Notes under the pieces: model-generated
Database searches by the model: none
Told to the model about the DNA's origin: nothing
Seen by the model: the letters and a program-made list of their open reading frames with translations, nothing else
Position numbers and translations under genes: made by a program
Part shown: positions 51,318 through 64,000 of the stretch, one piece after another
Layout: each line of letters starts with the position of its first letter
How positions within the stretch are numbered: the stretch's first letter is position 1
Source of the DNA: an uncultured Pseudomonadota bacterium
GTDB taxonomy: Bacteria; Pseudomonadota; Gammaproteobacteria; Natronospirales; REEB76
Direction: 5' to 3'
Assembly (NCBI GenBank): GCA_963774895.1
Contig: CAVZGN010000001.1
Coordinates: 292,495 to 356,494, forward strand
DNA length: 64,000 nt

Positions 51318-53270
51318 TCAATCCTGCTGCAACTCAGGCAGGTTCTGGTAGTGCTGGAGCGCCTGCGGGTTGGCGAGTGCGTCGGTATTCTTGACCGGCC
51401 GGCCGTGGATTACGTTGCGCACCGCCAGCTCGGTGATCTTGCCGCTGATGGTGCGCGGGATATCCGCTACCGCGATGATCTTGGCCGGCACATGGCGCGG
51501 CGAGGTATTGTCGCGGATGGTTTTCTTGATCTTCGAAGTCAGCGCTGTGTCCAGCATCACGTCATCGCGCAGGCGCACGAACAGCACCACGCGCACATCG
51601 CCCTTCCAATCCTGGCCCACGGCCAGGGATTCGACGATCTCCGGCAGTTTCTCCACCTGCCGGTAGATCTCCGCGGTACCGATGCGCACGCCGCCGGGGT
51701 TGAGGGTTGCGTCCGAGCGTCCGTAGATGATGAGACCGTCGTGTTCGGTGAGTTCCGCCCAGTCGCCATGGCGCCAGATGTTCGGGAACACATCGAAGTA
51801 GGCATCGTGGTACTTGCGTCCGTCGGGATCGTTCCAGAAAAAAACCGGCATGGAGGGGAACGGCTTCACGCACACCAACTCGCCCGGCCGGCCGCGCACA
51901 GGCTGGCCGGCATCGTTCCAGATTTCCACCGCCATACCCAGACCCCGGCATTGCAGCTCACCGGGATACACCGGCAACAGCGGATTGCCGAGGGCGAAAC
52001 AGGAGATGATGTCGGTGCCACCGGAGATCGAGGACAGGCACAGGTCGGATTTGATATCGCGATAGACATATTGGGAATTTTCCGGCAACAGCGGCGAGCC
52101 GGTGGAGGTGATGATGCGTAGCTTCTCCAGTTTGTATTTTTGCCTGGGATGCATGTCGAATTTCTCAGCAGCTGCCAAATATTTGGCGCTGGTGCCGAAG
52201 ATGCTCAGGCCCTCCTCGTCGGCGATGCGCCACAAGATGTCCAGCTCGGGATGGAAAGCAGAACCGTCATAAAGCAAAACCGTGGCACCCACCGCCAGGC
52301 TCGATACCAGCCAGTTCCACATCATCCAGCCACAGGTGGTGAAGTAGAAGATCATATCGTCGCGCCTGAGATCGGTATGTAGCACCAGTTCCTTCAGATG
52401 CTGGATGAGTGTGCCGCCGGCGCCGTGCACGATGCACTTGGGCACGCCGGTGGTGCCGGAGCTATACATGATGTACACCGGATGCTCGAACGGCAGTTGT
52501 GCGAATTCGATCTCCGTGGCATCGGTCAAGTAATCATGCCAATGGATAGCATTAGGTAATCCGGTGATATCCGGGTCGGCGTTTACATAGGGAATCACCA
52601 CCAGCTTCTGCACCGAGATCAGCTGCTCCAGCACCCCACGTATTCGTTCCAGTGAGTCCACGGTCTTGCCGGCATAGAAATAGCCGTCGCAGGTGAATAG
52701 TATCTTGGGTTCGATCTGGCCGAAGCGGTCGAGCACACCGTTGATGCCGAAATCCGGCGAGCACGAAGACCAGATGGCGCCGAGGCTGGTGGCTGCCAGC
52801 ATGGCGATGATGCTCTCCGGGCGGTTGGGCATGAACCCCGCCACCCGGTCGCCGCTTTTCACGCCGGACTTCCTGAGCGCACCGGCCAACGCCGCCACCT
52901 GTGCGTAGAGTTCCCGATAGCTCAGGTTGAGGCGCTTGCCATCCTGTTCGCAGCGGAACACCAGGGCAGTGCGTTCATCCCGGTAGCGCAGCAGGTTTTC
53001 GGCGAAGTTCAGGCACGCGCCGCTGAACCATCGGGCGCCGAGCATTTTATCGCCGTCCACCAGTACCTGGTCCCAGGGTTTTGAGGCTTTGATGCCGCAG
53101 AAGTCCCAGATATGCGGCCAGAAGCGCTCTGGATGCTCGACCGACCAGTGGTACAGCTCAGGGTAACTTTTTACTTCCGGCCCAGCATGTTTCCGCACAT
53201 GCTCCAGGAAGCGCGTCAGATTGGTGCGCTCGATGACCTGTGGGCTGGGTTTCCAGAGCGGTTGGGTCAT
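51318..53270 (-). CDS. Acetoacetate--CoA ligase
   Basis: Motifs LNFAENLL, SSCSPDFG, YSSGTTGVPKCIVH, TTCGWMMWNW, SISGGTDI and GRSDATLNPGGVRIGT. Confidence 0.93.
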   Translation of the reverse strand: MTQPLWKPSPQVIERTNLTRFLEHVRKHAGPEVKSYPELYHWSVEHPERFWPHIWDFCGIKASKPWDQVLVDGDKMLGARWFSGACLNFAENLLRYRDERTALVFRCEQDGKRLNLSYRELYAQVAALAGALRKSGVKSGDRVAGFMPNRPESIIAMLAATSLGAIWSSCSPDFGINGVLDRFGQIEPKILFTCDGYFYAGKTVDSLERIRGVLEQLISVQKLVVIPYVNADPDITGLPNAIHWHDYLTDATEIEFAQLPFEHPVYIMYSSGTTGVPKCIVHGAGGTLIQHLKELVLHTDLRRDDMIFYFTTCGWMMWNWLVSSLAVGATVLLYDGSAFHPELDILWRIADEEGLSIFGTSAKYLAAAEKFDMHPRQKYKLEKLRIITSTGSPLLPENSQYVYRDIKSDLCLSSISGGTDIISCFALGNPLLPVYPGELQCRGLGMAVEIWNDAGQPVRGRPGELVCVKPFPSMPVFFWNDPDGRKYHDAYFDVFPNIWRHGDWAELTEHDGLIIYGRSDATLNPGGVRIGTAEIYRQVEKLPEIVESLAVGQDWKGDVRVVLFVRLRDDVMLDTALTSKIKKTIRDNTSPRHVPAKIIAVADIPRTISGKITELAVRNVIHGRPVKNTDALANPQALQHYQNLPELQQD

Positions 53271-53514: not shown

Positions 53515-55521
53515 ATGGGAGAATCCCACGTGAAACCAACAACCTCCAAAAGCATCACGTCGCTGACTGAATTTACCATCCGTGGTGTACTCATCGGCAT
53601 CATCCTTACGGTGGTGTTCACGGCAGCCAACGTGTATTTCGGCCTCAAGGCCGGTCTCACGTTCTCCACCTCGATTCCGGCAGTGGTGATCTCCATGGCG
53701 CTGCTGCGCTGGTTCGGCAACGCCACCGCGCAGGAGAACAACATTGTGCAGACGATCGCTTCCGCGGCCGGCACCCTGTCCTCCGTCATCTTTGTGCTGC
53801 CCGGTTTCGTCATCATCGGTTGGTGGACAGGCTTCCCGTTCTGGTTGTCGGCCGCGGTATGCGCCACTGGTGGTGTGCTGGGCGTGATGTATTCGATCCC
53901 GCTGCGCCGCGCGCTGGTGACCGACTCCGATTTGCCTTACCCGGAAGGCACTGCTTGTGCGGAAGTGATCAAAGTGGGCACAAGTCCCGAGGGCGCCGAG
54001 GATGTGGAGGCCGGCACTGCCGGGCTCAAGGCAGTCATCGGCGGAAGCATTGCATCCGCCGTGTTCTATCTCGTGGTGCAGACCAAGATTCTCGCCAGCG
54101 ATGTGGTCAGCTATTTCCGTCTCGGCGGTGAAAAAAGCTCGGCCACCGGTTTCGACTTTGCGCTTTCCTTCGCGCTGTTCGGCATCGGCCATCTGGTTGG
54201 TATCACCGTAGGTCTGTCGATGCTGGTGGGCGCACTCATCGGCTGGGCCTGGGGCGTGCCGCACTTTACTGCATTGCATCCGGTCGTGGGTGCGGCCGCA
54301 GACGTAGCTCAAGCCGGTTGGAGTCATTACGTGCGTTTCGTGGGTGCCGGCGCCATCGGCGTGTCCGCCATTTGGACGCTGTTCAAACTCATCAGGCCAG
54401 TGGTCGGCGGCCTCAAGGGCGCGATCGCGTCGTCACGGGTGCGCAAGGCAGGCAAGGGCGATACCCTGCCACGCACGGAACACGACATCCCTGTGAACCA
54501 GATGGCGCTGGTCTCGCTCATCTGCATCGTGCCTATCTGCTGGCTGCTATGGAGCTTCGCGAGTGGCGCGGGCTTGGGCCAGCACGCTTTGTTGCTGACC
54601 ATCGGCGGCATCATCATCGTGGTGATCATCGGTTTTCTGGTGTCTACGGTGTGCGGCTACATGGCCGGACTCATCGGCGCTTCCAACAGCCCGCTCTCAG
54701 GCATCGGCATCCTAGTGGTCGCCACCACGGCGCTTTTCCTGGTGGTGGCCGTCAAGGCCTCGCTGCCGCCTGAAGCCGGCAAAGCGCTAGTCGCCTACGC
54801 ACTGTTCGTGACATCGATCGTGTTCTGTGTGGCGGCCATCGCCAACAACAACCTGCAAGACCTGAAGACCGGCCAGCTGGTGGACGCCACGCCCTTGAAA
54901 CAGCAGTGGGCGCTGGTGATTGGTGTGCTCGCAGGCGCGGTAGTGATACCACCGGTGCTGGATCTGGTCAACAAAGCCTACGGTTTTCTGGGCGCACCCG
55001 GTGTGAACCCGGCGCATGCACTGCCTGCGCCCCAGGCGGGACTGATCTCGGCCCTTGCCCAGAGCGTGATTCAGAACGACGTGGAAAAGTGGAAGCTGAT
55101 GGGCATTGGCCTGGGTATCGGCATTGCCAGCATCCTGGTGGATTGGGCGTTCACCCGCACCACCAAAACCGTGCGCATGCCGCCGCTCGCCGTCGGCCTC
55201 GGCATTTATCTTCCCACCGCCTCGACGCTGATGATCGTGGTGGGTTCGGTGGTCGGCTGGTGGTATGACCGGCGTGCGCAGCGCGCGCCCAGACCGGATG
55301 CCGCCAAGCAACTGGGCGTACTGCTGGCCTCGGGACTGATTGTCGGTGAAAGCGTGCTGGGGTTGGTGGTGAGTGCACTGGTGGTGTTCTCCGGCAATTC
55401 ATCGCCGCTCGGCGTAGTGGGCGACAGTTTTTTCATACCCTCGCTTTTCATCGGCGGGATCGCGTTCGCGGTGGTGGTGTTCGTGCTGTACCGGTGGATG
55501 GAGAAGCTGGTGCGGAAGTAA
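53515..55521 (+). CDS. OPT family oligopeptide transporter
   Basis: Multi-TM protein with motifs SIPAVVIS, ENNIVQT.ASAAG, LPYPEG.A, NNLQDLKTG, LPAPQA and ASGLIVGES. Confidence 0.93.
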   Translation: MGESHVKPTTSKSITSLTEFTIRGVLIGIILTVVFTAANVYFGLKAGLTFSTSIPAVVISMALLRWFGNATAQENNIVQTIASAAGTLSSVIFVLPGFVIIGWWTGFPFWLSAAVCATGGVLGVMYSIPLRRALVTDSDLPYPEGTACAEVIKVGTSPEGAEDVEAGTAGLKAVIGGSIASAVFYLVVQTKILASDVVSYFRLGGEKSSATGFDFALSFALFGIGHLVGITVGLSMLVGALIGWAWGVPHFTALHPVVGAAADVAQAGWSHYVRFVGAGAIGVSAIWTLFKLIRPVVGGLKGAIASSRVRKAGKGDTLPRTEHDIPVNQMALVSLICIVPICWLLWSFASGAGLGQHALLLTIGGIIIVVIIGFLVSTVCGYMAGLIGASNSPLSGIGILVVATTALFLVVAVKASLPPEAGKALVAYALFVTSIVFCVAAIANNNLQDLKTGQLVDATPLKQQWALVIGVLAGAVVIPPVLDLVNKAYGFLGAPGVNPAHALPAPQAGLISALAQSVIQNDVEKWKLMGIGLGIGIASILVDWAFTRTTKTVRMPPLAVGLGIYLPTASTLMIVVGSVVGWWYDRRAQRAPRPDAAKQLGVLLASGLIVGESVLGLVVSALVVFSGNSSPLGVVGDSFFIPSLFIGGIAFAVVVFVLYRWMEKLVRK

Positions 55522-57292: not shown

Positions 57293-58039
57293 CTACAGCA
57301 CCCCCCGTTGTTTAAGTGCGGCAATGAGTGCGGGAACATCTTCCACTTTCTGGCCACCGATTCGCGGCGGCGGCGGCGCGTATTTTGTTACTTCCAGATG
57401 CGGAGCTGCGGCAATGCCCAGTTCTTCCAATCTCAGGGCTTGCAGGGGTTTGCTGCGGGCTTTCATGATGTCGGGCATCTTCACGAACCGCGGGGTGTTG
57501 AGCCGCAGGTCGGTGGTGATTACCGCCGGCAGATCGATCGACAGGATCTCCAACCCGGCGTCCACTTCGCGGGTGACGGCCGCGGTCTTGGCTTTCAATT
57601 CCACCTTGGAGGCAAAGGTTGCCTGAGGACGGTCCCACAGGGCCGCCAGCATCTGGCCGGTCTGGTTGCTGTCGTCGTCGATGGCCTGTTTGCCGAGGAC
57701 CACCAGTTCGGGATTCTCGCGTTTCACCAATGCATGCAACACGCGCGCGATCATCAGGGGTTGCAGTGCTGCGCCAGCTTCCACCAGTATCGCCCGGTCA
57801 GCTCCCATGGCCAGGGCTGTGCGCAGCTGTTGCTGGCTGTCCGCTATCCCGATGCTCACGGCCACGATCTCCGCCTGCGTGCCGCCTTCGCGGATGCGCA
57901 AGGCTTCCTCCAAGGCGATCTCGTCGAAGGGATTGATGCTCATCTTGACGCCATCGGTGTTGACGTCGCTGCCGTCCTTTTTCAGCTGCACACGCACGGA
58001 ATAATCGATGACGCGTTTAATGCCGACCAGTATTTTCAC
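57293..58039 (-). CDS. etfB: Electron transfer flavoprotein beta subunit
   Basis: Motifs KRVIDY, NPFDEIALEEA, ALAMGADRA, GKQAIDDD and LNTPR. Confidence 0.96.
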   Translation of the reverse strand: MKILVGIKRVIDYSVRVQLKKDGSDVNTDGVKMSINPFDEIALEEALRIREGGTQAEIVAVSIGIADSQQQLRTALAMGADRAILVEAGAALQPLMIARVLHALVKRENPELVVLGKQAIDDDSNQTGQMLAALWDRPQATFASKVELKAKTAAVTREVDAGLEILSIDLPAVITTDLRLNTPRFVKMPDIMKARSKPLQALRLEELGIAAAPHLEVTKYAPPPPRIGGQKVEDVPALIAALKQRGVL

Positions 58040-58198
58040 TTTGTCCGCCTGATGTTTATCGAAACACTAGGTTGTATTCTTGTCCAAACACGATCGGGTG
58101 ATGGGTTGCGTGAAGTATACAATCTTCGTATGTGACTGACGGCAGTCACCGCTTGAAGATAGCACCCCATGCGGTTGCGTGTGTGGTGGATATGCCGG

Positions 58199-58993
58199 TT
58201 ACGGGTTTTTGGTTGCTACGATGACCTGGAAGTTGCCGCAGAAGTAGGTGCGGCGCTCGCAGGTAAAACCGCCGATCTCATGGAATAGCATCACCGGGTC
58301 GTGGGTATCCCACAGCGCCAAACCCAAGGGCTCGAAGACCTTGAAATAGGTCCAGCTGAGCGCCCGTAATACCCAGCGTTCCGGCTTGTGGAATTCAGCC
58401 AGATAGACCTTGCCGCCCGGTTTGACCACGCGCCCGGCTTCCCGCAGGGCCTGAATCTTGAGGTGGTGCGGGAGTTCATGCAACAGGAAGAAGATCACGT
58501 TGGCCGCCACCGATCCGCTCTCAAGCTTCAGGGATGCGGCGTTCTGTTCCAGCATCTCGGTCTTCTCCACATGGCCGAGCAGCTTGCTCTCCGCATGGCT
58601 CAGTTCGTTCTTGATGATGTCGGCGATCAGCACCTTGCGCGCACCGGTCTCGATCGCGGCCGTGACCACACGCGGGATCACGTTGCCGAAGGCACAGGAC
58701 GTGATCAGGACTTTCTGGTCGCGCAGGTCAAGACGCCGCAGCCCGTCCACGATCGCGGAAACCAGCCGGTGATACTGGAACAGCAGGATCGCGGAGATGA
58801 TCGGCTGGAAATCGATAAGGCGTATGAGTCGCATATTCGAGTAGATCGGATATATATGCGAAGCGTCCGTGTCTTCTCCCGAAAGCGCGCTGCGGACCAT
58901 GAGGGCGCCGCGGGTCAGCGTGAAGAAGAACAACGCCGTGCCCGTGAGCAGGGCTGTGATTGACCCAATAACATAAATCATCCAGGTTCCCAT
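58199..58993 (-). CDS. RquA-like class I SAM-binding protein with N-terminal TM helix (putative rhodoquinone biosynthesis enzyme)
   Basis: Gly-poor motif I (LITSCAFGN, cf. RquA QxACVYG), LIDFQPIISAILLFQYHRL, FFLLHELP, KPGG, EFHKP and FEP...LW. Lies directly downstream of frdD with a GAGG RBS. Confidence 0.7.
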   Translation of the reverse strand: MGTWMIYVIGSITALLTGTALFFFTLTRGALMVRSALSGEDTDASHIYPIYSNMRLIRLIDFQPIISAILLFQYHRLVSAIVDGLRRLDLRDQKVLITSCAFGNVIPRVVTAAIETGARKVLIADIIKNELSHAESKLLGHVEKTEMLEQNAASLKLESGSVAANVIFFLLHELPHHLKIQALREAGRVVKPGGKVYLAEFHKPERWVLRALSWTYFKVFEPLGLALWDTHDPVMLFHEIGGFTCERRTYFCGNFQVIVATKNP

Positions 58994-59064
58994 ATTCTTA
59001 TATCCTCTTTTGCCCTTGAGACCGGCCTATTCCCGAGCCTGAACCAGCAGATGCCGGAGGCAGG

Positions 59065-59442
59065 CTAAGAATACCTTATCAACGCCAATGCATAAACCGT
59101 GACCAGGGTTGCAACCAGCGGCAGCCCGTAACAGAAAAGTTTGGCGATCACACCCGTATGCATGCCGAAGTCATGCAGACTGTGGAAGATGCGATGCCCG
59201 GCATGCCAGAAGAACAGCATCACCACGACGAACAGGAACGCGGCGCCGAGCCACGAATGCGCGAAGGCCAGTACATACGAGTAGGACAGGGTATCAGCGG
59301 GCAGCAACAGACCGAGCGGTACTGCGATACCTGTGATCAGCACCAGCACCGGGCCTATCAGTGCGGACAGCATGCCGCCCGCGCCGAACAGCAGCCAGAA
59401 CACCGGCGCATTGGTGCGTTGCATATTGATCTTCATGCCCAT
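59065..59442 (-). CDS. frdD: Fumarate reductase anchor subunit D
   Basis: Motifs R.NAPVFWLLFGAGGM, WHAGHRIFHSLHD and CYG. Confidence 0.92.
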   Translation of the reverse strand: MGMKINMQRTNAPVFWLLFGAGGMLSALIGPVLVLITGIAVPLGLLLPADTLSYSYVLAFAHSWLGAAFLFVVVMLFFWHAGHRIFHSLHDFGMHTGVIAKLFCYGLPLVATLVTVYALALIRYS

Positions 59443-59846
59443 AGACCCCAGACCAAGGCGAACAGGATAATGCTGACGATGACAGTCGCCGCCAGGCCGC
59501 TGCGCGTGATGGCTGCCGCGGACAGGCGCTTGCCTTTCAGCATGATCGGCGGCAGGGTCCGCGGCATGATGTGGAACCAGGTCCAGCTGTGATAGCTAAT
59601 GGCGACCAGCGTGATCACTTGGAAGGCGACGGACGACGGCGACTTGAGCGCAGCCAGCCAGGCATCCCAGGCTGCCTGGCCTTGCGACAGGCGCACCAAA
59701 CCTACCAGCAACACCAGTGCATAGGCGGCCACGAACACCGCGGTGGCCTCGTGGAGCATGTACTCGATATAGAAAGTGTTGCGCCGCCACCATCCCTGCA
59801 TGGGGCGCCTATACGGCCGCCGGCCGCTGCTGGCAGGAGCGGTCAT
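59433..59846 (-). CDS. frdC: Fumarate reductase anchor subunit C
   Basis: Motifs RRPYRRPM..WW...FY..YMLHEATAV and HSWTWF...P. Confidence 0.92.
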   Translation of the reverse strand: MTAPASSGRRPYRRPMQGWWRRNTFYIEYMLHEATAVFVAAYALVLLVGLVRLSQGQAAWDAWLAALKSPSSVAFQVITLVAISYHSWTWFHIMPRTLPPIMLKGKRLSAAAITRSGLAATVIVSIILFALVWGLWA

Positions 59847-60598
59847 TTATCACCTCCACGTGGAGTCACGAAGCGCAGGAAATAATCCTTGGCCGCGTTG
59901 GCCTTGTTCACGTTCACCGCATTCGCCGGATCCACCAGCTTGGGGCAGACCTCGGAGCAGTAGCCAACCGCGGTGCAATTGAAGACCCCGTCCTCGGAGT
60001 TCACCAGCGGCTTGCGCTGCTGCTCTCCGCTATCACGCGAGTCCAGGTTGTAGCGATGCAGCAAGGCGATGATGCCCGGCCCCAGAAACTTCGGGTTCAG
60101 GCCATACTGGGGGCAGGCGGCATAACACAGCATGCAGTTGATGCACGAGCTGAACTGCTCATACACATCGCGCTCGGCCGGGGTCTGCAGGTATTCGCCC
60201 TGTGCCAGCGGGCGCGGCTGCTTCTCGATGATATAGGGCTTGATGCTCTCGAGCTTCTCGATAAAGTCGTCCATGACGATCACCAGATCGCGTTCGATGG
60301 GGAAGTGCGCCAGCGCTTCGACCCGCACGCGTCCGGGATAGAATTCCCGCAGAAAGGTCTGGCACGCGAGCCGCGGCTTGCCGTCGATCATCATCCCGCA
60401 GCTGCCGCAGATGGCCATGCGGCATGACCAGCGGAAACTCAGGGTGCCATCCAAAAAATCCTTGATGTATTGCAGACCCTGCAGCACCGACATATCCTCG
60501 CTGAAGGGCACGCTGTAGGTCTGCAGCACCGGCTTGGCATCCTGCTCGGGCCGGTAGCGCAGCACATCCATCATGATGGTGTTTTCGGTATTCGGCAT
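59843..60598 (-). CDS. frdB: Fumarate reductase iron-sulfur subunit
   Basis: Cysteine motifs RWSCRMAICGSCG, CINCMLCYAACP and CTAVGYCSEVCPK. Start at 60598. Confidence 0.95.
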   Translation of the reverse strand: MPNTENTIMMDVLRYRPEQDAKPVLQTYSVPFSEDMSVLQGLQYIKDFLDGTLSFRWSCRMAICGSCGMMIDGKPRLACQTFLREFYPGRVRVEALAHFPIERDLVIVMDDFIEKLESIKPYIIEKQPRPLAQGEYLQTPAERDVYEQFSSCINCMLCYAACPQYGLNPKFLGPGIIALLHRYNLDSRDSGEQQRKPLVNSEDGVFNCTAVGYCSEVCPKLVDPANAVNVNKANAAKDYFLRFVTPRGGDK

Positions 60599-60599
60599 C

Positions 60600-62387
60600 T
60601 CAGTGACCCGCGGCTTTTTTGTCATGCTCGGCTTGCTCTCCGGCCGCGCCGTAGGCGCGTACCCCGGGCTGTGACTTGGTGATCTTGACCGCGCCATATT
60701 CGATGCGCGGTGCGGATTCACCATTGTAGTAAGCCAGCGAATGTTTCAGATAATTGGCGTCATCGCGTTTTTCGTAGCCATCGAGCCGCTGGTGGGCACC
60801 GCGTGATTCCTTGCGGTTGAGGGCGGAATGCACCATGGCCTGGGCCACTTCCAGCTGATAACCGAGCTCAATGGCTGCCAGCCAGTTTGAATTCCACACC
60901 CGGGACTTGTCCTCCACATCCACGTTCTTGAAGCGCTGCCGGAGTTCGCCGAGCTTGTCGCAGGTGGTCTGCATGCTGTCGGCCAGCCGGTAGATGCCGC
61001 AGCCGTCCTCCATGCTCTGGGCCATTTGCTGGCGCAGCGTCGCGAGCCTCTCGCTGCCATCGCTGCGTTTCACCAGTAGTTCAGTGCGCTGCTGCGCGGC
61101 CGTGGCCTGGTCCAGCAAGGTCTTGGTATCGCCAGCAGGCATAGTTTTCGCAAACCGCGCCGCCTCGTCACCGGCCACTTTGCCGAATACACACAGTTCC
61201 GCCAGTGAATTTGAACCCAAGCGGTTGGCGCCGTGGATCCCGACACTCGAACATTCACCGACCGCATACAGTCCCGGGAGCGGTGTCGCACAATGTCCGT
61301 CTACCAGGATCCCGCCCATGGTGTAATGAATTGCGGGGCGTACCGGTATCGGTTGCTTGGCCGGATCGATGCCCATGAAGATCTCCGCCATCTCGTAGAT
61401 TTGCGGCAGGCGCTCGCGCAGACGCGCTTCGCCCACATGCCGCATGTCGAGTTGCACGTAGGTGCCGTGGGGCCCGTCGAGGGTGAGCCCCTTTTGCTGT
61501 TCATACCAGAACGCCTGGCTCAGGCGGTCGCGGGGTCCGAGTTCCATGTACTTGTTGCGGGGTTTGTCTTCCGCGGGTCCCAGGCCGTAATCCTGCAGGT
61601 AGCGGTAACCGTCCTTGTTCAACAGGAATCCACCCTCACCACGACAGGCTTCGGTGAACAGCAGACCGGTGCCCGGCATGCAGGTGGGGTGATATTGCAT
61701 GAACTCCATGTCGCGCAGCGCCACCCCATGCCGGTAGGCCAATGCCATGCCATCGCCGGTGACGATGCCGCCATTGGTGTTCTCGCGGAACGCGCGGCCG
61801 GCGCCGCCGGTGGCGATGATGACCGCTTTGGATTTGATCAGCGTGAACTGGCCGGTGCGTATCTCGATCACTACGACGCCTTGCACGCGCCCGTCCGCGG
61901 TCACCAGATCCACGCAGAAGTGTTCATCGAAGCGCCTGATGGAAGGATATTTGATGGAAGTCTGGAACAGGGTGTGCAGCATATGAAAGCCGGTCTTGTC
62001 GGCGGCGAACCAGGTGCGCTCGACCTTCATGCCGCCGAAGGCGCGCACGTTTACGTGGCCATCCGGCTTGCGGCTCCAGGGGCAGCCCCAGTGCTCCATC
62101 TGCACCATCTCTTCGGGGCAATGGGCCACGAAATACTCGACCACGTCCTGCTCGCAGAGCCAGTCGCCGCCGCCCACGGTATCGTTGAAATGATAGTCGA
62201 GCTTGTCGTCCGGACGTGTGACGGCGGCCGAACCGCCTTCCGCGGCCACCGTGTGGCTGCGCATGGGGTAAACCTTGGAGATGAGCGCGATCCTCAGCGC
62301 AGGATCAGCCTCGGCCACGGCGATGGCCGCGCGCAGGCCCGCACCGCCCGCTCCTACGATTGCGACGTCCGCTTCGTAGACTTCCAC
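60600..62387 (-). CDS. frdA: Fumarate reductase flavoprotein subunit
   Basis: Motifs SKVYPMRSHTVAAEGG (covalent FAD His), ADKTGFHMLH, QYHPT, TEACRGEGG, HYTMGG and HGANRLGSNSL. Confidence 0.96.
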   Translation of the reverse strand: MEVYEADVAIVGAGGAGLRAAIAVAEADPALRIALISKVYPMRSHTVAAEGGSAAVTRPDDKLDYHFNDTVGGGDWLCEQDVVEYFVAHCPEEMVQMEHWGCPWSRKPDGHVNVRAFGGMKVERTWFAADKTGFHMLHTLFQTSIKYPSIRRFDEHFCVDLVTADGRVQGVVVIEIRTGQFTLIKSKAVIIATGGAGRAFRENTNGGIVTGDGMALAYRHGVALRDMEFMQYHPTCMPGTGLLFTEACRGEGGFLLNKDGYRYLQDYGLGPAEDKPRNKYMELGPRDRLSQAFWYEQQKGLTLDGPHGTYVQLDMRHVGEARLRERLPQIYEMAEIFMGIDPAKQPIPVRPAIHYTMGGILVDGHCATPLPGLYAVGECSSVGIHGANRLGSNSLAELCVFGKVAGDEAARFAKTMPAGDTKTLLDQATAAQQRTELLVKRSDGSERLATLRQQMAQSMEDGCGIYRLADSMQTTCDKLGELRQRFKNVDVEDKSRVWNSNWLAAIELGYQLEVAQAMVHSALNRKESRGAHQRLDGYEKRDDANYLKHSLAYYNGESAPRIEYGAVKITKSQPGVRAYGAAGEQAEHDKKAAGH

Positions 62388-62426
62388 ATTATGTCCTTTG
62401 GCCGATGGATCTGAATCGATATACCT

Positions 62427-62468
62427 AGATTAAGACCTGGATGGTAGTCTTGAATTGATCCAGGTCAT
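62427..62468 (-). promoter_or_regulatory. Class II FNR/ANR-dependent promoter of frdA
   Basis: TTGATCCAGGTCAT (62455-62468) matches TTGAT-N4-ATCAA at 8/10. A minus-strand TAATCT at 62432-62427, taken as the -10, places the box centre at -41.5. Confidence 0.65.
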
Positions 62469-62499
62469 AAGGACGACTCTCCTGACCTATAAACGATGT

Positions 62500-64000
62500 T
62501 CACAGGTTCTGGTAATTTGGCCCGGAACCGCCCTCCGGCGTGGTCCAGGTAATGTTCTCGTAAGGATCCTTGATATCGCAGGTTTTGCAGTGCACGCAGT
62601 TAGCGGCATTGATCTGCAGTCGCTTGCTGCCGTTCTCCTCGACGATCTCATAGACCTGCGCCGGGCAGAAGCGGGTGCAGGGGTTGCCGAATTCCTGGGA
62701 GCAACGGCCGATGCACAGATTGGTGTCCGGCACCTTGAGATGCACTGGCTGGTGTTCGTCGTGGGTGGTGGTGGCAAAGAACACCGAAGCCAGCCGGTCG
62801 CGCGGCGGCAATGTACGGGTCACGTAGTCCTTCACTTTGGCGTAATTTTCATCACGCTTTTTGAGGCTCTTCCAGTCTGCATGATTCTTGAACGTCCAGG
62901 GCAGCTTGCCGAAGGTGATGGTCTCCAGCGCGCCGTTCAGCAGTCCGAACCATAAGCCCCGGTGAAAGCCGGGACGGATGTTGCGGATCTTGTGCAATTC
63001 CTTCGCGGAACGCGAGCGGCGCCAGCGGGCGTCGAAACCCTCGCTGCTGCCGTGTTCCGCCAGATGTTCCGCCGCCAGCATCCCGGAGCGCAGCGCCATG
63101 TGTACGCCCTTGATCTTGGGTACGTTGAGCATACCCGCCGCATCGCCCACCAGCAGCGCACCGGGCATCTCCAGTTTAGGCAACGATTGGATGCCGCCTT
63201 CGGTGAGTGCACGCGTGCCCGCGGAAAGGATCTCGCCGCCTTCCAGCAGCGATTTTACACTCGGGTGGTTCTTGAATTGCTGGAAGGCTTCGAAAGGCAT
63301 GAAATCCGGATTCTGGTAATCCAGCCCCATCACGTAACCCGCGTATACACGGTCGTTGTCCAGGTGATAGAGGAAACTGCCGCCGTAGGTCCGGGAATCC
63401 ACCGGCCAGCCGATGCTGTGTTGTATCAATCCGGGTTTCGCCCGGCCCGCCGGCAGTTGCCAGAGTTCCTTGAAGCCGATGCCGTAGGTTTGCGGTGAAC
63501 ACTCCGCATCCAATCTGAATTCCCGGATGAGCTGTTTGCTGACGCTGCCGCGGCAGCCTTCCGCCAGCACCGTGACGCCGGCATGGATATCCACGCCAGC
63601 GGCGAAGTTGGGTCCCGGCGTGCCGTCTTTGTTCAGACCCATGTCGCCGCAGCGCACGCCAATGACCTTGCCGTTATCGATCAGCGCCGCCGCCGCGGGA
63701 AAACCCGAGAAGACTTCCACACCCAAAGATTCCGCCTGTTGCGCCAGCCATGCACACAAACTTCCCAGCGAGATGATGAAGTTGCCGTGATTTTTCATCT
63801 GCGGCGGTAATGGCAGACGGATGCGTCCGGTCTTGGTGAGCAGCGCGAATTGGTCCTTGGTCGCAGGTACGCAGATGGCGGGAGGCGTTTCGCGCCAGTC
63901 GGGCAGCAGTTCATCCAGCGGCGCTGGTTCCATCACGCAGCCGGAAAGGATGTGCGCGCCCACCGTTGAGCCTTTCTCCAGTACGCAGATACGGCTCTCG
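62500..64000 (-). CDS. Electron transfer flavoprotein-ubiquinone oxidoreductase (5' end outside the window)
   Basis: Motifs LEKGSTVGAHILSG, AEGCRG, GFKELW, EGG.QSLP, GDAAG.LNVPKIKG.H and C-terminal [4Fe-4S] CPAQVY...CVHCKTC. Confidence 0.95.
   Translation of the reverse strand, partial: ESRICVLEKGSTVGAHILSGCVMEPAPLDELLPDWRETPPAICVPATKDQFALLTKTGRIRLPLPPQMKNHGNFIISLGSLCAWLAQQAESLGVEVFSGFPAAAALIDNGKVIGVRCGDMGLNKDGTPGPNFAAGVDIHAGVTVLAEGCRGSVSKQLIREFRLDAECSPQTYGIGFKELWQLPAGRAKPGLIQHSIGWPVDSRTYGGSFLYHLDNDRVYAGYVMGLDYQNPDFMPFEAFQQFKNHPSVKSLLEGGEILSAGTRALTEGGIQSLPKLEMPGALLVGDAAGMLNVPKIKGVHMALRSGMLAAEHLAEHGSSEGFDARWRRSRSAKELHKIRNIRPGFHRGLWFGLLNGALETITFGKLPWTFKNHADWKSLKKRDENYAKVKDYVTRTLPPRDRLASVFFATTTHDEHQPVHLKVPDTNLCIGRCSQEFGNPCTRFCPAQVYEIVEENGSKRLQINAANCVHCKTCDIKDPYENITWTTPEGGSGPNYQNL

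Follow-up and report, generated by a model that had tools for sequence, protein, structure and literature searches.

Introduction

Rhodoquinone (RQ) allows complex II to be run backwards in ubiquinone-only bacteria and in many anaerobic eukaryotes. It is formed by RquA, an S-adenosylmethionine (SAM)- and Mn2+-dependent enzyme that exchanges a methoxy group of ubiquinone for an amino group, and to our knowledge RquA is the only known microbial rhodoquinone synthase. Here we describe a relative of rquA in a 64,000-nucleotide stretch of DNA (hereafter the window) from an uncultured gammaproteobacterium of the order Natronospirales (assembly GCA_963774895.1, contig CAVZGN010000001.1, positions 292,495 to 356,494). 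The gene lies immediately downstream of frdABCD, the genes for a four-subunit fumarate reductase (Frd) of the E. coli type. Its predicted product belongs to a distinct subfamily of RquA that has no name of its own and whose members appear to be tethered to the membrane by an N-terminal transmembrane (TM) helix. We refer to the gene as the anchored paralogue and to the subfamily as the anchored clade.

The closest described enzymes are the RquA proteins of the Rhodospirillum rubrum type (NF038261), which comprise groups A and B of Stairs et al., 2018 (PMC5953543) and have a class I methyltransferase fold with a degenerate motif I (L-Q-x-x-C-x-Y/F-G). The presence of rquA near complex II genes, and its association with fumarate reductase genes, have already been published (PMC5953543). 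The R. rubrum enzyme needs detergent, is membrane-associated and looks monotopic; SAM is its amino donor, Mn2+ is required, residues D118 and D143 are needed, and the first 40 residues are dispensable (Neupane et al., PMC9814641). RquA activity has been confirmed for 15 species in a study that built its tree from 'every hit' and that gives the potential of RQ as about −63 mV (PMC11707229). A canonical rquA has been named in Rhodoferax fermentans (PMC10411912), and R. ferrireducens has been treated as a species that makes RQ and has an orthologue of rquA (PMC6529003). In the main texts searched, including 10.64898/2026.04.08.717022 and PMC5953543, we found no description of a TM-anchored RquA.

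The protein encoded in the window resembles these enzymes in its fold, in its motif I, and in sharing with canonical RquA D125, K137, FFLxHExP, E221-P222 and W228. Like rquA, its gene can lie beside fumarate reductase genes and forms a single-gene unit without a conserved partner. It differs in sequence (24–35% identity), in having a true N-terminal TM helix in place of the canonical PxYL...YWWAY segment, in several substitutions at otherwise conserved positions, and in usually occurring together with a canonical RquA.

Results

The open reading frame (ORF) that follows frdD on the same strand (Table 1) is preceded by a Shine-Dalgarno-like GAGGA 9 nt upstream of its ATG, and its translation contains LIDFQPIISAILLFQYHRL, ITSCAFG, EQNAA, FFLLHELP, PGG, EFHKP and FEP..LW. 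Both the methyltransferase-fold ORF proposed in a first-pass annotation of the window and every peptide quoted there are thus confirmed. That annotation had called the protein RquA-like, and its best NCBIfam match is indeed the RquA equivalog model NF038261 (119 bits, E 2.4e-34, profile positions 13–217 of 218), as against 46.2 bits for the UbiE model TIGR01934 (cut-off 158) and at most about 46 bits for the UbiE and MenG models as a group. Of the Pfam models, only broad methyltransferase domains pass their thresholds, namely PF01209 (50.4 bits; threshold 20.1), Methyltransf_25 and Methyltransf_11. NF038261 was also matched by all 16 diverse members of the anchored clade that were compared with it (best E 5.8e-48); 12 of the 16 match TIGR01934 as well, much more weakly.

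When 1.84 billion representative sequences were searched, 398 proteins matched the anchored paralogue at E 0.001. The closest full-length matches (31–60% identity) begin to align at residues 10–20 and have the hydrophobic N-terminus in common with it. The next tier, at 25–35% identity, aligns only from about residue 51 and has the PxYL...YWWAY start. Two of the ten next-tier clusters looked up contain NCBI-named RquA (e.g. from Oxalobacter), and all four informatively named proteins are RquA. Members of the anchored clade are named exclusively 'class I SAM-dependent methyltransferase' or 'UbiE' in the databases, which bears out the expectation that annotation pipelines would see a generic methyltransferase here.

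Comparison with RquA and UbiE by phylogeny had also been proposed. We calculated a quick maximum-likelihood tree of 90 rows, consisting of 86 relatives and, as outgroup, four methyltransferases of the host genome; representatives shorter than 200 or longer than 400 amino acids were excluded, as was P0133. The anchored proteins are monophyletic, with a Shimodaira-Hasegawa-like approximate likelihood-ratio (SH-aLRT) support of 95 (97 with P0265), and RquA together with the anchored clade is split from the four outgroup proteins with a branch support of 93, in a quick tree whose backbone is weak. In an approximately unbiased (AU) test, the arrangement with the 64 canonical rows as one clade gave a p-AU of 0.754 and a log-likelihood 17.6 better. 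Because monophyly of the canonical rows is not rejected, the anchored clade may be the sister group of canonical RquA or a branch inside it. The candidate new clade of the first-pass annotation is therefore upheld as a separate, monophyletic group, and all 21 members analyzed for hydropathy have the predicted anchor.

The residues expected to matter for catalysis were tabulated for 17 clade members, 64 canonical RquA representatives and the outgroup (P0265 and four partial or long-branch rows excluded), where the UbiE side of the comparison consists of one UbiE and three other methyltransferases, all from the host genome. Motif I, in which an RquA-type degeneration had been noted, reads ITSCAFG in the anchored paralogue. 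In canonical RquA it is L-Q-x-x-C-x-Y-G (Q 95%, C 81%, Y 95%, G 94%) and in the anchored clade C is found in 88%, F in 76% and G in 100%; these patterns are of the same class, unlike the Gly-rich VAGGTGD of the host's own UbiE. K137 is present in 100% of both RquA forms and is R in this UbiE. F168, F169, L170, H172, E173 and P175 are conserved at 94–100% in the clade and 88–100% in canonical RquA, and the UbiE reads A F G L R N V T over positions 168–175. E221 (92% canonical, 100% clade), which is kept together with P222 in the anchored paralogue, is L in the UbiE, and W228 (81% canonical, 94% clade) is V. The anchored paralogue thus keeps residues that distinguish RquA from the UbiE-type enzymes of its own host (K137, H172, E173, P175 and E221). 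Y51, L70, K137, L170, H172 and E173 are invariant over 71 mixed sequences, and the residues that carry over between the two RquA forms (K137, H172, E173 and E221) are candidates for the Mn2+ and substrate site.

The Asp that follows motif I, D125, is also kept (100% canonical, 94% clade). The Asn at the second acidic SAM-site position, residue 151, had been thought unusual, but 16 of the 64 canonical representatives (25%, against 73% with Asp) have Asn there, including the over-threshold RquA of genome G028, and Asp is found in 82% of the clade. Asn151 was accordingly rejected as a distinguishing feature. D125 and N151 would correspond to D118 and D143 of the R. rubrum enzyme, a mapping made by motif position in an alignment without the R. 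rubrum sequence.

The N-terminal TM helix that had been proposed to replace the PxYL start is well supported by prediction. The best 19-residue Kyte-Doolittle window of the protein scores 1.90 (residues 6–24), and an N-terminal 19-residue window with a mean of at least 1.6 is found in 21/21 clade members as compared with 1/64 canonical representatives, in which the window is internal. An AlphaFold2 model built from a 71-sequence alignment (mean predicted local distance difference test score 86.1, predicted template modeling score 0.82) displays a helix at residues 3–37 followed by a Rossmann-type methyltransferase fold. Since the positive charges R28 and R34 follow the hydrophobic segment, the positive-inside rule would place the catalytic domain in the cytoplasm. 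Among solved structures, yeast Coq5 (4obw, E 5.4e-12) matches the model best; a sequence search against the solved structures of the Protein Data Bank gave 0 matches at E 0.001.

The gene is under strong purifying selection, as demonstrated by comparison with its orthologue at locus L009 (nonsynonymous divergence dN 0.054, synonymous divergence dS 0.665, dN/dS about 0.08). To place it among its homologs, species-representative genomes were scanned; of 369 pattern matches, 296 encode a relative, and the best 80 loci were examined. The search used a close alignment and these 80 loci are biased to 64–90% identity; the reading frame is intact in every one of them. Most belong to metagenome-assembled genomes (MAGs) of Burkholderiales, with Rhodoferax, Comamonadaceae, Polaromonas, Ramlibacter, Janthinobacterium, Methylotenera and others represented. 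At 28 loci serS precedes the gene, and ispH and the genes for a serine/threonine dehydratase and an FKBP isomerase are close by; ATP-binding cassette transporter genes, glcD, a LysR-type regulator gene and others are found beside it elsewhere, and no partner gene is conserved among the 80 loci. The 103–201 nt spacer between serS and the anchored gene contains a TTGTC-N4-ATCAA-like box (mostly TTGTCCTGAATCAA, with 1–2 mismatches to the FNR consensus) in 27/27 loci, e.g. L012 and L021. This hints that the serS-linked genes may have an oxygen-responsive promoter of their own, although the 27 loci are close kin and the conservation is weak evidence. At G072:C2:9607-10239 the match is part of a 718-amino-acid open frame, where 265–300 is usual; this may be a fusion or a stop codon missing from the MAG.

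The arrangement in the window, frdABCD followed by the anchored gene, recurs at L009, L010, L018 and L068. At a fifth frd-adjoining locus, L056 (8001–11534, in a betaproteobacterial MAG), the anchored gene is followed by a canonical rquA, whose product is 36% identical to the RquA of G028, and then by convergent frdDCB. The full 8 kb of upstream sequence is present for 53 of the 80 loci, and frdABCD lies there in 4 of these. We then compared the positions of both RquA forms in 50 of the 80 loci's genomes, chosen mostly for longer loci. FrdD is encoded in 39 of them, divided between 32 of the 35 genomes with both forms and 7 of the 15 with the anchored form only. Of the 35 genomes with both, 18 have the canonical rquA match no more than 300 nt 3' of that for frdD and in the same orientation, and frdBCD followed by rquA was seen in 9 of 10 loci fetched. 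No canonical rquA was found in any of the four genomes in which frdABCD is followed by the anchored gene (G041, G042, G046 and G080). In these four genomes, which lack the canonical gene, the anchored gene therefore takes exactly the position that canonical rquA has behind frdD elsewhere. In one further genome that has the anchored gene, a canonical-type rquA is represented by two sub-threshold pieces about 3 kb from frdD (G089:C9:249654-250321; profile positions 1–72 and 104–218) and may be a broken copy.

In its layout the frd cassette of the window resembles the frdABCD-rquA clusters of Burkholderiales and other Pseudomonadota, which have an E. coli-type four-gene frd, an RquA-family gene after it on the same strand, and an FNR-type box upstream. 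It differs from them in that its RquA-family gene is the anchored paralogue, that its FrdB is only 56–59% identical to those of the Rhodoferax-type operons, and that the unit is a recent insert. DNA homology with 5/5 congeners ends at 62500–62507 and 58038–58044, and in all five, which are without frd and the anchored gene, the gene for electron transfer flavoprotein (ETF)-quinone oxidoreductase (ETF-QO) directly adjoins etfB-etfA. The box, frdABCD and the anchored gene thus constitute a recent insert of about 4.45 kb between ETF-QO and etfBA. The gap between frdD and the anchored gene is 71 nt long, and no promoter-like or terminator-like site was found within it.

Upstream of frdA, a (T/A)TGACCTGGATCAA motif lies 66–68 nt from the start codon in the window, L009 and L010; the candidate box reads ATGACCTGGATCAA in the window, 67 nt 5' of the frdA start, and TTGACCTGGATCAA in the other two. 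The surrounding spacer has diverged among the three, though the box is kept. Because FNR patterns with up to 2 mismatches occur in the window at chance frequency (29 found, 26.3 expected), the box counts as evidence solely by virtue of being conserved in L009 and L010.

The host assembly (2.42 Mb in 4 contigs, 96% complete) contains no canonical rquA that we could find, and the anchored paralogue is its sole RquA-family match; the next match to NF038261, at 51 bits, is the true UbiE, encoded elsewhere. In the menaquinone check suggested by the first-pass annotation, MenA reached only 54 bits (cut-off 102) and neither MenD nor MqnA/D was found in the host genome, where UbiA scores 349 bits. With no menaquinone pathway or canonical rquA found, the E. 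coli-type Frd would depend on the anchored paralogue for a low-potential quinone. A separate forward-type sdhA is located on host contig 3. Among 21 genomes of the genus, the anchored gene and frdD are present in the same three. In an 81% complete genome of the same family, a frdD fragment lies at a contig end (G024:C373:3-191), where a downstream gene would be cut off, and no RquA-family match was found.

Discussion

We think it likely that the anchored paralogue is a membrane-anchored rhodoquinone synthase serving the Frd with which it was acquired, and that it probably lets this bacterium respire fumarate at low oxygen. The N-terminal TM helix would tether the catalytic domain to the cytoplasmic face of the membrane, within reach of ubiquinone-8. 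As RquA-type motif I and the RquA-specific residues (K137, H172-E173, E221) are kept, we infer that the enzyme carries out the RquA reaction, exchanging methoxy for amino on ubiquinone. The RQ so formed would be the low-potential donor for the adjacent four-subunit FrdABCD. In this scheme frdABCD and the anchored gene arrived as one 4.45-kb unit behind the FNR-type box, and are probably co-transcribed under low oxygen.

Several observations weigh against this proposal. The score of 119 bits is below the curated NF038261 cut-off of 175. The canonical PxYL...YWWAY segment, in which P, Y and the final Y are each conserved in 92% of canonical representatives, L in 84%, W in 86% and A in 83%, is absent, and the clade has the TM helix and H-x-Y-x-x-Y instead. 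G72F, Q130E and Y102F are found in the clade at positions that are 94–95% conserved in canonical RquA. No U32 gene of the UbiU/V type was found in the host genome, which leaves the anaerobic supply of ubiquinone without explanation. No assay of an anchored-clade member was found in the main texts searched; the 15 RquA proteins of PMC11707229 are detailed in its supplements, and an anchored member may be among them. The first-pass annotation had expected homologs to be linked to frd, and 75 of the 80 loci are not beside frd, so general frd linkage of the clade, seen at 5/80 loci, was rejected. This is softened by the finding that most such genomes have canonical rquA in the frd slot. FrdD was not found in 8 of the 15 genomes with only the anchored form, which are MAGs of unknown completeness.

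A further objection is coexistence. A canonical rquA scoring 260–323 bits is also present in 35 of the 50 genomes, where the anchored form scores 95–121 bits. An even sample of 301 genomes from the family of G047, which are kin and not independent and are centered on a genome picked for having the anchored gene, contains canonical rquA in 26 genomes, the anchored gene in 12, both in 10 and the anchored gene only in 2. The anchored gene is thus found in 10/26 rquA-positive as opposed to 2/275 rquA-negative genomes, a pattern not readily accounted for by a redundant isozyme. In the two genomes with the anchored form only, frd was not found within 7 kb of it. Because it usually coexists with canonical RquA (35/50; 10/12), the anchored form is a paralogue and not simply a replacement. 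On the whole, the interpretation of the first-pass annotation is partly supported. By comparison, in the data of Stairs et al., 0/182 organisms had both group A and group B rquA (PMC5953543), which suggests that the anchored clade is absent from that data set.

Such coexistence would be explained if the anchored form were an RquA-derived enzyme with a job other than bulk RQ synthesis. It could be a condition-specific RQ synthase (e.g. with an oxidant in place of O2), could aminate a different position or a different quinone, or could modify RQ further. The side-by-side placement of both genes next to frd at L056, the clade-specific substitutions noted above, and the separate box in the serS-linked loci, weak evidence as those close relatives are, all fit such a role. 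R. rubrum RquA needed O2 in vitro, and its natural oxidant under anoxia is given as unknown in that report (PMC9814641). Against a distinct job stand the retention of all the RquA-specific invariant residues and the exact occupation of the post-frdD slot of canonical rquA. A role that needs pre-made RQ is unlikely in the host, whose genome has no canonical rquA; the host and two congeners have the anchored gene and Frd without it, yet the gene is under strong purifying selection. We regard a distinct job as the main rival, though improbable on balance. In its fuller form, in which the clade is a second, functionally distinct enzyme of the RQ pathway that is kept beside canonical RquA in most carriers under its own FNR-like box and supports Frd alone in a few lineages, including that of the host, it is about equally improbable. 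Such an enzyme could work without O2 or make a different aminoquinone; there would then be a counterpart to ubiquinone synthesis, which has both O2-dependent and O2-independent routes.

The source names imply a routine class I enzyme that methylates C or O in the manner of UbiE, MenG and Coq5 (PF01209, TIGR01934) and has nothing to do with rhodoquinone, and the broad Pfam domains over threshold and the structural match to Coq5 point the same way. Coq5 is also a named structural relative of R. rubrum RquA (PMC9814641), and the anchored paralogue has none of the Gly-rich motif I of the host's own UbiE, falls far short of the TIGR01934 cut-off while scoring 119 bits with RquA, and carries residues found only in RquA. 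With a true UbiE encoded elsewhere in the genome as well, we consider this explanation very unlikely. It is scarcely credible that the gene merely travels with the frd cassette in a decaying or non-functional state. Its absence from 18 of the 21 genomes of the genus, and the Asn in place of an Asp whose counterpart was mutated in R. rubrum, might be taken as signs of dispensability; the low dN relative to dS, the intact frame at 64–90% identity in all 80 loci, and the occurrence of Asn151 in a quarter of canonical representatives speak against it.

A pairing of RQ synthesis with Frd is expected from what has been published; what is new is the coexistence with RquA, the displacement of RquA in the frd slot and the invisibility to the curated model. 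The membrane-anchored form is widespread, with 296 stretches from species-representative genomes encoding it, and its annotation is invariably that of a generic methyltransferase. If it is a rhodoquinone synthase, surveys that use the curated RquA model would miss RQ capacity in genomes like that of the host and, in most genomes of the Rhodoferax type, would leave a second RquA-family gene unnoticed. Should the oxidant requirement or the product of the paralogue differ from those of RquA, it would bear on how RquA works without oxygen.

Genomic surroundings

The features of the cassette and its neighborhood are listed in Table 1. For frdB, the start at 60598 (MPNTEN...) was chosen; the longest ORF begins at 60724, inside frdA, and the profile alignment starts at residue 47 of that long ORF.

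Table 1. Positions of the cassette and associated features in the window.
Feature	Coordinates	Strand	Remarks
Inserted cassette (box, frdABCD, anchored paralogue)	58045..62499	-	About 4.45 kb; bounded by the DNA homology breakpoints with congeners
Anchored RquA paralogue	58199..58993	-	ATG at 58993, stop at 58199; 264 amino acids; predicted TM helix at about residues 5–27, then RquA-type class I methyltransferase-fold domain
frdD, fumarate reductase membrane anchor subunit	59065..59442	-	NF003977, 136.2 bits (cut-off 60)
frdC, fumarate reductase membrane anchor subunit	59433..59846	-	NF003445, 105.7 bits, below the cut-off of 143; assigned by position and best match
frdB, iron-sulfur subunit	59843..60598	-	NF009051, 397.5 bits (cut-off 333)
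frdA, flavoprotein subunit	60600..62387	-	NF006686, 1041.8 bits (cut-off 854)
FNR-type box, candidate	62455..62468	-	5' of the frdA start
Acetoacetate-CoA ligase gene	51318..53270		Same neighborhood as the etf genes

In the window, the cassette is flanked upstream by the ETF-QO-like gene, which is cut by the window end, and downstream by etfB and etfA. This neighborhood had been offered as a typical RquA context. Because congeners without the cassette join ETF-QO directly to etfBA (5/5), the ETF genes mark the insertion site of frdABCD and the anchored gene and are incidental to the latter, and ETF was rejected as its functional partner. Several congeners have, at the position of the insert, a spacer of about 750 nt with a small ORF of about 125 amino acids (e.g. 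L101:722-1500 of congener G002).

Beyond ETF-QO (L099, G000:C1:356000-368000) lie genes for 3-hydroxy-3-methylglutaryl-CoA (HMG-CoA) lyase, biotin carboxylase, a carboxyltransferase and enoyl-CoA hydratase. Together with the acetoacetate-CoA ligase gene and a short-chain dehydrogenase/reductase gene of the same neighborhood, the surroundings of the cassette look like a cluster of the leucine/isovalerate-catabolism type. Between etfA and the acetoacetate-CoA ligase gene, a gene on the plus strand (53515–55521) encodes an oligopeptide transporter of the OPT family (TIGR00733, 627.9 bits).

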